Shown piece after piece: positions 18,576-26,045 of a stretch of DNA of 64,000 nt (the stretch's first letter is position 1; each line of letters opens with the position of its first letter). This DNA comes from Euglena gracilis (lineage: Eukaryota). Location of the stretch: NCBI GenBank assembly GCA_039621445.1, contig CP154954.1, forward strand, positions 24,812,954 to 24,876,953. Reading direction: 5' to 3'. Under the pieces are notes generated by a model. That model was given only the letters and a program-made list of their open reading frames with translations, did no database searches and had not been told where the DNA came from. Position numbers and translations under genes: made by a program.

Positions 18576-21500
18576 TTAGCCGCACTCCTCGCCGTCCTCA
18601 GGCTTGTCGGACCACGCCCCGACCGCGACCGACCGGTTCCCCTTCTCATTCTGCTCGGCTCCCCGCCGCTGCCCCCGACAGAAGGGGTGAGGATTATTGG
18701 GGGCGGGTGGAGAAGCCTTGGCACTGAACCCCCATTTGGACCCCCCATATCAGCGCCGCAGCACTGATGGCATGGAAGGAGAAAAATAAAAATGGGTGGA
18801 CATCATTTTTTTGAGCGATAAAGCAAGTTGTGTACAAAAAACACTGAAAAAAAATTGGCTGGGGGCAAATGCGCACCTGCACAGACAAGGGCGGCGGCAG
18901 AAGGGGGGGGGGGGGCTGGGCCTCGCCAGATGGTTGTTTGTCCCAAGCAAATATTTTGGTCGCACAAAGTGTTGAACCAAAAAAAAAGGAGGAATGTCAA
19001 AAAAAATTACCAGGGGTCGGAAGTTGTGATATGCATTCCCACCTGCCTGTCTCGGCTTGCCAGTGTTTCCCCCATGAAGCGATGCCAACGCAGTCGGCAA
19101 AAAACAACAATGGCAATAAAACCGCCAAAAAAAAACAACGGAAAATGCATTCCCGGCTGCCCAAGACCTGCCCCATCGAGGCTGGGCAGTGGCGGGGGTG
19201 GAGATCTTCTGGAGCAGGCCTGTCGCCTGGTCCAGGGTCTCCCGCAGCATCTGCTTTGCGCCGCCCACCTTGTTGTCTTGGTGGGCGGAGCAGATGTTGT
19301 CGAAGTCCCGGGCGGCCCTCGGCCTGTTGTGGCAGCCCCGTGGGGCCACATGAGCACCCACACGCAATGGCCGCCCAGAAGGAGGCAGCGGACGCACAGA
19401 TGGGTGGCTCGCGGGTGCACAGACTTCGACAGGCGTGTTATATAACAGCCTCCTGCCTCTGTACTTGCTTGAACTGTCCACCCTGTTTTCGACCTCTGCA
19501 CTCGTAGACTTGGCAAAAAGGTTTTTCCCAGGAGGGGGGAAGGTGCATGGTCTGCTGGTATTGGGGGCCAGGATTCGTGTTAAGGAAGGTTGCACCTCGC
19601 TGGGTGCTATGGGCAGGCAGGGGGTAAGGCACTTTCGACCTACAGATCCTCAGTGTACCTACCGAAAGGCCCACTCGAAGTGGCGTTACCTGTGAGACAT
19701 GGTTCTCGGAAGTCGAATCCCTTAGAACTAATGCTCAGAATCGTATTAGCAGCATCCATTCCCGTCAGAGACAGCAATATTTGCTAGAATTCAAATCACA
19801 AATACGATACAATGTCAAGACATAACGTGGCGAATACAAATCAATGTCAAGAGTGCTGGTGATCGCGTGTGGGTTCGAAATAGTCGAAGCGGCATGCAAT
19901 CTTCCAAATTGGACCCTCTCTGGCTGAAATACTCGGGGTGAAACCAAAAATGGCCATTTGTCCTTATTTCCATTTTCGGCACTCTTTGCCGAAAATTTCT
20001 TCAGCCCAGCCTGGCTTCGCCAGGCTGCGAAAACTTTAGTACCGATCGATCCCCCAGGGGAGGGTCCACAGCCTGGATATGGGAGCTGATGGCTGAAAAG
20101 AAGGTGCTTACTGGTTGATCCCCTTAAGAAATTGCCTGGGCCAGAGAGTCAGGCCGAGGCCCAGGCCCAGTCCGCCATCAGCTGCTCCACCCACGCCTTA
20201 AACTGCATCGGCGCCTCCTTCGTTGGGAACAGACCGTGGCCATCGTCTCCCCCTAGTGTGACCCATGGCTGCTTCCGTGCTGAAGGATCTTCTGCAGGAC
20301 TTTACGTGAAAAGTGTGTTTTTTTTGCGTTTATTTGTGTTTTTCTATTTGTGCTTTTTGTGTGGCGGTTTTCGAGGGTCCATGTCACGCCCCCCCCCCCC
20401 CGTGCTGTGCCCGGGCAGTGGCGAGGCAACCGCCCACCTGCTTCACCCACCCCGCTGTACCCCCACAGTATCACCAGAGAGCACTGCCGGAGGAGGAAAA
20501 TCATCACAATTTCCGGGAAAATTTTTCATTGTGCATCTAAATTATGATCTCTGTCTGATGAGATTTTGGGAGAGATCGAAATGATTATGGAAATAAAAAA
20601 AATGTGGACCAAAACATCCAAAATGGCTCAACAAAAATAGGTCCCAGGGAAAAGTGGAGCCAAAATGGCCCCCAGGCGGGGTGGAGTATTATCTTGGTTG
20701 TTTAAAGATTCATAAATTTATATTTGGTTGGTTGGTGCACACAACTAAAAAAAGACACTCTTCTTCATTAATTGATCCCTTGACCTTTCCTTTATGTGGA
20801 AGAGGGAAGCTGGAAAAGGACACAAGTTGCTCCTCACCAGCCGCTCAGGGGTTTTTTTTAAGACCGGGGGGGAGGGGGGGAGGGGGTCGGCACCCACCCA
20901 CCCACCCCCTGGGGTGGGCCCCCCCGGGGGAGGGGGAGGGGGGTCCCGGGGGACCCACCCAGTTTTGCCCGAAAATGGCCAAAAAGTGCCAAAAATAGCA
21001 CCTTTTCCAAAAAATTTCGGCGCCAAAGGCGCCGAAAAAGATACACCCACCAGCCCCAACCCCCACCCCGGGGGGGGGGGGGTCCAAGGGACCCACCCAC
21101 CCTACCCCCCGGGGGAGGGGGTCTAAGACTTAAAAAAACCCCTGCAGCCGCTAGATGGCCAGGAGATGGTGTGCTGGTATTGAGGTTGAAACGAAAACTT
21201 CTCACTTTTGCGGTCCCAACTCACTTGACTTGAGTGCAGGGGGGAGGCGATGGGCAGGTCCCTTGATACTGGGATGGAAGGCCATGTTCCCCTTCTTGAA
21301 GAGGAGCAGTCGAAGCAACCAGCCGGGCCAGGAGGCGTGTCCAAGCCAGGGCACCTGAGGACAGCAGAAATGCGAAGGCCCTGCCGAGAAACCCTGTCTG
21401 GTGGAAACTTTATGGAACTTTTCAGAGTCAAAGAGGCTGGAGATGTGCTGTTTTGAAATAAATTGACGAATGAATTCTCATCATGCTTGTGCTTACCAAC

Positions 21501-24500: not shown

Positions 24501-26045
24501 TGATTTTTTTTTCAGGGTTTGGGCCATTTTTGCTGAGAAATTTCCAACTTATCACAAATTATTCTGGCGAAATCTCGAGCGAACTGCGCGGAGGGCTTGA
24601 ATTCTTGTTGCTTTTGGGGGAGAGGGCTGTCACTTGGTTTTGTAGAAAAAGATTGGGGAGGTATTTAGGAGGGATTCCAAATGAAAAGACATTTCCCAGG
24701 TCCTGGGCACATCCAGCGTGGGCACCCACTGCCTGTGTAAAGAGAGAGGCGGGCAACGCAGCAACTCCAGAGCCTCCGCCGGCGGAAGGCGACGGTGTGG
24801 AAGGGGTGGGTGGCGATCACTGCCTCGATCTTCCGGCCGTTCCGGGCAGGGGCCCCGCCCAGGAAGAGGGAAGCCGGCCGCGGTGGGGAACGCGTGGCAG
24901 GCAGAACGAAAGATGCGGAGACCGGGGGCGGTGTGGGCCAAACCAAACCCGACGGGGCGGGGACATTGCGGTGAATCAACAGCAGTAGGCCATCCACGGC
25001 ACCGGACCCCAACCGGTCCGAGGCACCGAACGCTGGCCGATGTGAGACCCGCGTGGTGGGACCCAAGGGGAGGGGCTCTGGGCGTCAGTGAGGCGATCGA
25101 ACTCCGCCTTCGCGCCGGGCTCCAGCTTGACGGTGTCGATCACCAGAAAGTTCCCGTTGGGGAGGCTGGCCCCAGCCAGGCGGTGTCCTCCTTCGACATA
25201 AGTCCCGACACGACACCCCCCCCCCTTTCTGGTCAAGGGGGTGGGGAGGAAAACCTCCTCCCAGATTGGCAGGGGGTTCGAGGTTCGAAACGGCATAATT
25301 GGCGGTTCTTTGGGGGCATTTTTGCCATTTCAATTTTTTTGGGTATCTGGTTTGACCCGCTGTTGGTCCCAGGTCCAGGTGGCCTCCAGGGCAAATTTTC
25401 CAGCCTCTGAGCTGCCCCCCCCCCCTCCGGGGTTGCTAAGCGACGACCGACGAGTTTTCGTTCTTGTTCAGGGTGGATGGTGACGGATTCTTTGGGTTTT
25501 GGAGGGGCAAAATGGAGGTGCCCAAAATGGGCGAAAAAAGGTCGAAAATGGCTTCCGAGCTGCCAGGGACCCCATCCAGCTGAAAGCGACACCCTGTCCC
25601 GGACAACTTTACATTGATCTCTGGGGGGGGGGGGGCGTTCTGCTGTGGAAATGGAGATGAGACAGCAAATGGAACGTTACTCAAAAAAAGTGACTGTGAA
25701 TTTGTTTAAAGCACACACACACACACACACACATACCCACTCAGGGCTGTACAGGAAGTCCTGGCAGGGGGGTCCACCTGCCCGCTCATTATTGGACCGC
25801 AAAAAGAAAACTCCTTCGGTGCAGAATTTTCAACCTGGCCCCTCCCCCAGAAAAACGGGAAGGGGCGGCGCACCCCCACCCAACAGGAAGGGGGGGTCTT
25901 CCGCCTTGTCTCTGGTGGTGGTGCCGGGCTGGTCGCAGACCGACATGTGCGTCCTGATGTCGACCAAGCCCAACGCCACTTTGAACGGCGCGCGGAGGTT
26001 GAAGAAGCCGGGGCCGATGGCCACGAAATGTTCCAGCCGCTCCAT
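18576..26045 (-). CDS. Uncharacterised metallo-beta-lactamase-fold-like protein (possibly DUF4336-related), 10 exons, 282 aa
   Basis: Exons: 26045-25935, 25167-25084, 24841-24781, 24214-24109, 22592-22517, 22092-22009, 21324-21256, 20235-20167, 19307-19200, 18656-18576 (849 nt, open frame, GC3-rich codons, TAA stop). Protein: MERLEHFVAIGPGFFNLRAPFKVALGLVDIRTHMSVCSLPNGNFLVIDTVKLEPGAKAEFDRLTDNGRKIEAVIATHPFHTVAFRPFFTSYPNAKYYGTPRHLRILPEIPWAGDVNCTSVRAMWEPHVSMRVPAGSEFVDPKPPKSNHFSNVFVFHRESRTIHNDDTICYSADPGWLLRLLLFKKGNMAFHPSIKGPGLFPTKEAPMQFKAWVEQLMADWDFDNICSAHQDNKVGGAKQMLRETLDQATGLLQKISEQNEKGNRSVAVGAWSDKPEDGEECG. The order LVID / THPFH / HNDD / CSAH matches MBL-fold motif spacing. The family name is inferred. 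Confidence 0.85.
20236..21255 (-). other. Nonconventional intron with a long terminal stem
   Basis: CCT|GCCCATCGCCTCCCCCT...AGGGGGAGACGATGGCCAC|GGT. 13 of 14 positions from +4 pair with -6 onward. Confidence 0.9.
20846..21144. mobile_element. hAT-like MITE, 8-bp TSD
   Basis: TIRs CAGGGGTTTTTTT / AAAAAAACCCCTG. Perfect TSD CAGCCGCT. Confidence 0.9.
21482..21768. mobile_element. Copy of the CAGGCTTGTGCTTA MITE family
   Basis: Inverted homolog of 56628-56927, with ends CATGCTTGTGCTTA / TAAGCACAAGCCTG. Confidence 0.85.
23743..24023. repeat. (GCAC)n-(AGAC)n-(AG)n compound microsatellite
   Basis: Read directly. Confidence 0.97.
25168..25934 (-). other. Nonconventional intron (textbook form)
   Basis: TGC|GACCAGCCCGGC...GCCTGGCTGGGGCC|AGC. 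CAG at +4..+6 pairs with CTG at -8..-6, 8/9 stem, no GT or AG. Confidence 0.9.

Follow-up and report, generated by a model that had tools for sequence, protein, structure and literature searches.

The nuclear genes of euglenids carry, in addition to conventional introns, a class of nonconventional introns whose most conserved element is the pairing of positions +4, +5 and +6 with positions -8, -7 and -6, mostly as CAG with CTG (Milanowski 2016; PMC4770533). In Euglena gracilis, 16,151 of 28,337 introns (57%) are nonconventional (Gao 2024; PMC11170887), and in E. agilis the class makes up 71.8% of introns (Nomura 2025; PMC12501133). Here we describe a gene of E. gracilis in which all nine introns belong to this class. 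It lies on the minus strand, at positions 26045-18576 of a 64,000-nucleotide stretch (GenBank assembly GCA_039621445.1, contig CP154954.1, positions 24,812,954 to 24,876,953 of the forward strand), which we call the window and by whose numbering all positions are given. Its neighbor is a gene for the topoisomerase TOP3B, whose introns are nearly all conventional.

The splicing code derived for the nonconventional introns of E. agilis reads 5'-N3CDG...CH'GN5-6, with R following the 3' splice site, and is fitted by 61.2% of these introns. Direct repeats flank 84.4% of all introns in that species, and mutagenesis has demonstrated that splicing depends on the motif at +4 to +6 and -8 to -6 and on the length of the spacers (Nomura 2025; PMC12501133). 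The removal of conventional introns and that of nonconventional ones differ in timing, and all introns of the E. gracilis rbcS gene are nonconventional (PMC6221363). The same is true of E. agilis hsp90, in which six of six introns are nonconventional in structure, and gain of such introns is described as ongoing, even inside one species (PMC4770533). For the tubulin genes of Euglenales, PMC3935182 counts 15 nonconventional gains against 0 conventional ones, and it places the earliest nonconventional introns found in the transferred genes rbcS, lhcp2 and gapC. In other species, nonconventional splicing may depend on the spliceosome (Gao 2024; PMC11170887).

The nine introns examined here are a clean example of the published class and represent no new phenomenon. 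Like the euglenid nonconventional introns described earlier (Tessier 1995; Milanowski 2014, 2016; Gao 2024; Nomura 2025), they have ends other than GT-AG, a helix that joins +4 to +6 with -8 to -6, spacers of 3 and 5 nt, a downstream exon that begins with a purine, borders that can slide along direct repeats, and variable length. Like rbcS of E. gracilis and hsp90 of E. agilis, the gene contains nonconventional introns exclusively; unlike these two, it is a metallo-beta-lactamase (MBL)-fold, DUF4336-like gene with nine introns, and it is not plastid-derived as rbcS is. What is modestly new is that helices in the right register function with letters other than those of the code. Unlike most nonconventional introns of E. 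agilis, six of those described here use GGA/TCC, CGA/TCG, GGG/CCT, CAT/ATG, TGG/CCG or CCC/GGG, mostly in longer helices. We consider it highly probable that this is a resident MBL-fold gene, that its introns of the published class are spliced under the guidance of their terminal helices, and that its intron content reflects turnover inside the euglenids rather than a late arrival of the gene.

Gene model and product

The ten exons, with the intron borders proposed in an earlier note made from the sequence of the window, were joined by script into a reading frame of 849 nt, which encodes 282 amino acids followed by a stop codon. This product and EG_transcript_20317, a 282-amino-acid protein of E. 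gracilis in EukProt (here P0001), agree at 280 of 282 residues. The sole differences, V82L and A122T, are substitutions that affect neither the frame nor a junction, and P0001 has no insertion at the residues encoded by the junctions. With a 40-residue query around exon 4, EG_transcript_20317 was retrieved with an identity of 100%, and a protein of Euglena longa with one of 81%. The spliced product is also colinear with homologs from other eukaryote groups. Thus, the nine proposed introns, which together remove 6,621 nt, hold as placed. The locus is a resident, expressed nuclear gene of E. gracilis or of a very close strain. Its parts are as follows.

26046-26056, minus strand: candidate 5' untranslated region (UTR), located behind a possible spliced-leader acceptor and proposed from the sequence
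25935-26045, minus strand: exon 1, with ATG at 26045-26043, codons 1-37, placed by the match to P0001
25168-25934, minus strand: intron 1, 767 nt, ends GA..CC, core CAG/CTG, 5-nt 3' spacer then A; conforms to the published code
25084-25167, minus strand: exon 2, placed by the joined model and the match to P0001
24842-25083, minus strand: intron 2, 242 nt, ends GC..GG, no sliding, core CAG/CTG; conforms to the published code
24781-24841, minus strand: exon 3, containing a conserved THPFH stretch
24215-24780, minus strand: intron 3, 566 nt, core GGA/TCC, 7 contiguous pairs at +4/-6, outside the CDG/CHG code
24109-24214, minus strand: exon 4, placed by the match to P0001; the loose ends of reads that break off at 22592 match its 3' end
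22593-24108, minus strand: intron 4, 1516 nt, ends GT..TC, no sliding, core CGA/TCG
22517-22592, minus strand: exon 5, match to P0001 and RNA
22093-22516, minus strand: intron 5, 424 nt, core CAG/CTG, 4-nt 3' spacer, 10-bp helix at +4/-5; RNA joint from 22092 to 22517
22009-22092, minus strand: exon 6, match to P0001 and RNA
21325-22008, minus strand: intron 6, 684 nt, core GGG/CCT with G-U pairs, containing a G/C-rich repeated element
21256-21324, minus strand: exon 7, match to P0001 and RNA
20236-21255, minus strand: intron 7, 1020 nt, core CAT/ATG, containing a G/C-rich repeated element
20167-20235, minus strand: exon 8, match to P0001 and RNA
19308-20166, minus strand: intron 8, 859 nt, core TGG/CCG (3 pairs), with a second helix of 10 bp farther inward at +8/-10
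19200-19307, minus strand: exon 9, match to P0001 and RNA
18657-19199, minus strand: intron 9, 543 nt, core CCC/GGG, 6 contiguous pairs; RNA joint from 18656 to 19200
18576-18656, minus strand: coding part of exon 10, with the stop codon at 18578-18576

The 3' UTR extends below position 18400, given that RNA depth reaches this position and an mRNA contig adds 72 letters beyond it. On the other side of the gene, 11 nt before the ATG, is the end (at 26057) of a C-rich tract with a CAG behind it that may represent a spliced-leader acceptor; outron acceptors in Euglena are preceded by C-rich tracts (Gao 2024; PMC11170887). Intron 4 contains a compound microsatellite of about 280 nt (23741-24022), in which about 49 copies of (ACAG)n adjoin about 20 copies of (CACG)n.

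Transcript evidence for splicing

Two raw-read RNA sequencing runs from different studies and two contig sets presumed to be RNA were aligned to positions 18400-23700, a span that stops short of the long tandem array in intron 4. The earlier note had suggested RNA alignment with noncanonical junctions allowed as a check on the gene, and this bore out the model for introns 4-9. Joints that skip 543, 859, 1020, 684 and 424 bases, corresponding to introns 9, 8, 7, 6 and 5, are present in all four runs and agree with the modeled borders within 1-5 bases of sliding. The 30 letters that follow in reads ending at 22592 have a single match in the window, at 24109-24138, and therefore the borders of intron 4 are fixed as well. 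Support at the level of reads thus covers six of the nine introns (4-9), and support at the level of the protein covers all nine.

Every read that spans a junction is spliced. Raw-read depth is about 0 in the repeat-free bins of introns, versus 5-28 in bins of exons or of the 3' UTR. In the stranded run (X24), nearly all first mates lie on the plus strand, and over exons all of them do, which fits an RNA transcribed from the minus strand.

At 22591, the coding-strand letter is A rather than G in some RNA reads; this corresponds to the A122T form found in P0001 and shows that both forms are expressed. The reads also differ in part from the window at 22541, 18537, 18549, 18557 and 18468; one of these differences is a single-base deletion within the 3' UTR. 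Two alleles or near-identical copies of the gene appear to be expressed.

G/C-rich and partly palindromic elements are common to intron 7 (20870-21110) and intron 6 (21500-21770). RNA contigs accumulate on these elements, with a summed word depth of up to 3021 and many loose ends that lead into other sequence. They look like members of a dispersed repeat family that is transcribed elsewhere in the genome.

Most intron ends are complementary in one register

Seven introns have borders that may be shifted by 1-5 bases with the same resulting mRNA; introns 2 and 4 lack direct repeats. Among all allowed placements of the nine introns, none yields GT-AG, GC-AG or AT-AC ends, in agreement with the initial claim that GT-AG pairs are lacking. 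In the register that pairs +4 with -6, introns 1 through 9 have 5, 3, 7, 5, 0, 5, 5, 3 and 6 contiguous pairs, respectively. Eight of nine introns therefore have at least three pairs in this register (range 3-7), as the earlier note had reported, and intron 5 is shifted by one base to +4/-5. When the 5' and 3' ends were permuted among the nine introns 20,000 times, the register count was matched at p = 5e-5. The mean duplex energy of the true pairs of ends is -21.0 kcal/mol versus -13.0 kcal/mol for mismatched ends, and 0 of 20,000 permutations equaled the energy of the true pairs. As a control, the 26 conventional introns of the neighboring TOP3B gene were treated likewise; none of them has three or more pairs in the register, and their mean duplex energy is -6.4 kcal/mol.

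The paired cores vary with compensation on both sides, as had been claimed. Introns 1, 2 and 5 carry CAG/CTG, and the others carry GGA/TCC, CGA/TCG, GGG/CCT, CAT/ATG, TGG/CCG and CCC/GGG, two of which (GGG/CCT and TGG/CCG) make use of G-U pairs. The earlier note went further and held that structure rather than sequence defines these introns. Their main feature is indeed a helix set at a constant distance from the splice sites, but "structure only" is too strong because C is found at +4 in six of the nine introns and CAG/CTG in three of the nine.

Measured against the strict code (N3CDG/CHGN5-6 followed by R), two of the nine introns fit, namely introns 1 and 2; given the expectation of 61.2%, two or fewer fitting introns would be found with a probability of 0.021. 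Intron 5 matches the code save for its 4-nt spacer, and the remaining six do not fit. None of introns 5-9 conforms to the strict code, yet all five are fully spliced in the reads. Because the CDG/CHG code is carried by only 61.2% of nonconventional introns, it is a feature of a subclass and not a defining one.

The flanks of the splice sites also have preferences. The upstream exon ends in a pyrimidine in seven of nine cases and the intron ends in a pyrimidine in seven of nine; the intron begins with a purine in eight of nine, as does the downstream exon, whose third base is C in six of nine. Borders, pairing and flanks match the published model, and the assignment to the known euglenid type made in the earlier note stands. 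When the borders are set by the +4/-6 register, seven of the nine introns are in phase 0 (P = 0.008 for at least seven, assuming equal phases), although the phases of seven introns are formally ambiguous due to sliding. The preference at the junction for a pyrimidine before the intron and purine-N-C after it mimics codon periodicity, which may account for the excess of phase 0.

A metallo-beta-lactamase-fold protein

The product of the gene has a marginal match to the Pfam family DUF4336 (PF14234; 29.2 bits versus a cut-off of 28.5), which is limited to residues 204-244. A Pfam scan of the ten exons taken singly gave no match, as these exons are too short. An AlphaFold model built with 20 homologs has a mean predicted local distance difference test score (pLDDT) of 90, and a Foldseek search of the PDB with this model retrieved MBL-fold hydrolases with E of about 1e-9 and template-modeling (TM) scores, relative to the target, of at most 0.79 (2p97). 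A sequence profile of the family searched against PDB sequences gave 0 matches, and a literature search on DUF4336 found nothing related. Residues H77, H80, H102, H148, H156, D166 and H229 are invariant in the alignment.

By the predicted structure, the product is a 282-amino-acid MBL-fold protein from a eukaryote-wide branch near DUF4336. It resembles the DUF4336 MBL proteins in its Pfam match and its predicted fold, with the difference that the match is confined to such a short segment. Most family members have a conserved C-terminal ECG after a variable linker. In the second E. gracilis paralog this tail is missing, and it is the N-terminus that is extended.

Intron type is clustered by gene

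The neighboring gene lies head to tail with the DUF4336-like gene on the same strand, and its end is 847 nt upstream of the ATG of the latter.

26893-59134, minus strand: TOP3B, about 29 exons over 32 kb, located by tblastn with guide protein P0137

The guide protein (843 amino acids) contains the domains Toprim (PF01751), Topoisom_bac (PF01131) and Zn_ribbon_TOP3B (PF23546), which confirms the name given to this gene at the outset, and exons of the window align to its residues 6-843 with 53-93% identity. Two motifs that we take to be typical of TOP3B proteins were located in the window: SYPRTES at 46621, with what is presumably the active-site tyrosine, and DCDREGE at 53075. A query with a 42-residue TOP3B exon did not find an E. 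gracilis TOP3B protein and retrieved the homolog P0137, from a cluster that includes Euglena mutabilis. The TOP3B junctions are therefore guided by homology and not based on transcripts.

To model these junctions, every in-frame placement was scored against P0137. Among the resulting 28 introns, 22 have GT-AG or GC-AG ends among the top placements, four have them within 3 score points of the top, and two are not conventional. Intron 1 (59077-58473) conforms to the code of nonconventional introns, having N3-CAG...CTG-N6 followed by A, and intron 28 (27664-26984) has the ends GT..CG. The 26 conventional introns begin with the GTGTG-like sequence known from the literature and have a C-rich tract ahead of CAG. 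The earlier count of 27 spliceosomal introns among 29 was thus correct in that nearly all are conventional, and is revised to about 26 among the 28 modeled by homology.

If introns were independent, the probability that nine of nine are nonconventional would be 0.006 to 0.05 at the genome-wide shares of 57% and 71.8%, and the probability that at least 26 of 28 are conventional, as in TOP3B, would be 4e-8 to 1e-12 at the same shares. The first outcome is unremarkable and the second is very improbable, and therefore intron type is clustered by gene. Because most introns in Euglena are nonconventional (PMC11170887, PMC12501133), it is TOP3B that is the statistical outlier and the odder of the two genes, not the gene with nine nonconventional introns.

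Farther upstream, on the minus strand at 62390-62890, are two open stretches that in our judgment look like glyoxalase I in its C-terminal half. For the intron between them, there is no obvious GT-AG solution.

Relatives of the gene and origin of its introns

The best 120 of 391 homologs are about 50-60% identical to the protein and are spread over many eukaryote groups. Those with names come from chytrids, the cryptophyte Guillardia, the glaucophyte Cyanoptyche, Physarum and other slime molds, Plasmodiophora, Acrasis, Mallomonas, bdelloid rotifers and a fungus gnat. The second E. gracilis paralog, EG_transcript_21192, is 58% identical, and a homolog is present in Entosiphon sulcatum, an early-branching phagotrophic euglenid that has no plastid. 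In the tree, E. longa, a metagenomic cluster and the E. gracilis paralog group with the window protein, with a support of 89 in the Shimodaira-Hasegawa-like approximate likelihood ratio test (SH-aLRT), not starred. Constraining this Euglena clade to pair with Entosiphon was not rejected and gave a log-likelihood (lnL) 4.28 above that of the tree from the free search, with a p value of 0.613 in the approximately unbiased test (p-AU).

Among the best 120 of 391 homologs, no named one is from a green alga. Three conserved peptide patterns searched in 185,579 prokaryote genomes gave 71 pattern matches and no confirmed relative. From these comparisons, a bacterial or green-algal donor is not indicated, and the gene looks old within the euglenids.

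Old host genes can come to contain nonconventional introns exclusively, since this is the state of hsp90 in E. agilis (PMC4770533). For the gene described here, the ancestral conventional introns would have been lost, either gradually or at once by way of a processed copy, and gains of nonconventional introns would have continued. The present state most likely reflects such intron turnover within the euglenid lineage and not an arrival from outside. The introns themselves are like those expected if they derive from transposons resembling miniature transposable elements with inverted repeats (MITEs), a hypothesis put forward in PMC3935182 and PMC12501133, in that they have terminal inverted repeats and short flanking direct repeats. 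They differ in that no internal sequence family is common to all nine; introns 6 and 7 are the sole pair that share elements.

Proposed mechanism and alternative explanations

We propose that both ends of each intron pair within the pre-mRNA, the bases from +4 onward with those from -6 onward, to form helices of 3-10 bp. Each helix would juxtapose the two splice sites, which lie 3 nt away on the 5' side and 5 nt (in one case 4 nt) away on the 3' side. The splicing machinery could then measure from the terminal helix and cut at a fixed distance, in which case helix and register would weigh more than the exact letters, with C at +4 and CAG/CTG favored. Removal may follow that of conventional introns, possibly with release of the introns as circles, as described in PMC12501133 and PMC6221363.

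An artifact of reverse transcriptases that switch templates at short direct repeats, or of genome assembly, could in principle produce such apparent introns, and direct repeats of 1-5 nt at seven of the nine junctions are a typical signature of template switching. This explanation was rejected, and we regard its probability as negligible: it is contradicted by the uniformly spliced junction reads in four runs, by the near-zero raw-read depth in the repeat-free bins of introns, by the two introns (2 and 4) that have no repeat, and by a product that skips 6,621 nt in total and remains colinear with homologs of other eukaryote groups. Moreover, repeats of this kind flank 84.4% of E. agilis introns (PMC12501133). 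It is also conceivable that the ordinary spliceosome removes these introns at noncanonical sites and that the terminal helix merely helps the ends to approach each other. Intron 4 begins with GT, and nonconventional splicing can depend on the spliceosome elsewhere (PMC11170887). We give this alternative little credence, as the introns have neither a GTGTG match for pairing with U1 nor the C-rich tract followed by AG that is seen in the 26 TOP3B introns, and the published dependence on the motif and spacer length (PMC12501133) and the separate times of removal of the two intron types (PMC6221363) speak against it.

With regard to origin, the earlier note proposed that the gene had entered intron-free, through lateral or endosymbiotic transfer or as a retrocopy, when conventional introns were no longer being gained. 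In the endosymbiotic case, the donor would be the green alga that gave rise to the plastid. In favor of an arrival by transfer are the nine of nine nonconventional introns next to a gene in which about 26 of 28 are conventional, the occurrence of the first nonconventional introns seen in the transferred genes rbcS, lhcp2 and gapC, the tubulin genes of Euglenales that have acquired no new conventional introns (both from PMC3935182), and the patchy spread of the family, which extends to bdelloid rotifers and a fungus gnat and hints at occasional movement between eukaryotes. Nevertheless, arrival by transfer is not supported by comparison with the wider family, which is eukaryote-wide. The pattern scan yielded no prokaryotic relative and the best 120 of 391 homologs no named green-algal match; the gene has homologs in E. 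longa and in Entosiphon, which lacks a plastid, and a second paralog in E. gracilis; a clade that spans the euglenids is not rejected and has a better score than the free tree; and hsp90, an old host gene, is entirely nonconventional in E. agilis (PMC4770533). Transfer from outside now seems quite improbable. A special case of turnover is a retrocopy within the euglenids, in which one Euglena paralog would be a processed, intron-less copy that was colonized later. Two paralogs in E. gracilis at 58% identity, the complete absence of conventional introns, and nonconventional gain that continues even within one species (PMC4770533) are compatible with such an event. We think it somewhat unlikely, considering that the paralogs are old, as judged from their long branches, and that the gene stands in an ordinary head-to-tail arrangement with TOP3B.

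Several points weigh against our preferred explanation, in which a resident gene acquired its present introns by turnover within the euglenids and these introns are spliced with the guidance of their helices. The junctions of introns 1-3 are supported by the match to P0001, and those of introns 4-9 by RNA reads in addition. The pairing register varies, with intron 5 off by one base and introns 2 and 8 having only three register pairs, and a residual preference for sequence persists (C at +4 in six of nine, CAG/CTG in three of nine). What is proposed about the machinery, about release as circles and about the order in which introns are removed would apply here by analogy with published work. 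Many of the best 120 of 391 homologs are unnamed, the absence of prokaryotic relatives rests on three peptide patterns and is weak evidence, and the support of 89 for the Euglena clade is modest. In the free tree, Entosiphon stands apart from Euglena on an unresolved backbone, and the constrained group, which includes the unnamed sequence P0133, was chosen after the tree had been viewed, such that the p-AU of 0.613 is no proof of a clade. Finally, the turnover scenario is an inference.

Implications for euglenid introns

The locus provides a transcript-verified case in which both intron systems of Euglena adjoin on one strand, although it mostly confirms what is known about them. Its natural introns with GGA/TCC, CGA/TCG, CAT/ATG and CCC/GGG cores can serve as test cases for widening the published splicing code. 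In the papers searched, intron type is nowhere tested genome-wide for a link with the history of genes, and the supplements of PMC12501133 may contain counts of this kind.

A broader proposal combines the two themes of this analysis: intron type may mark an intron-less past of the individual gene, and the splicing machinery may read the distance from the helix rather than the letters CAG/CTG, as the six introns outside the code suggest, with longer helices compensating for nonconsensus cores. We offer this joint proposal tentatively, as one that is possible but doubtful. If it were true, genes that had once been intron-less, due to a processed copy or a transfer, would carry nonconventional introns exclusively, whereas genes like TOP3B would keep an ancient conventional set. 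The ratio of intron types in each gene could then be used to date intron-less passages throughout the genome.

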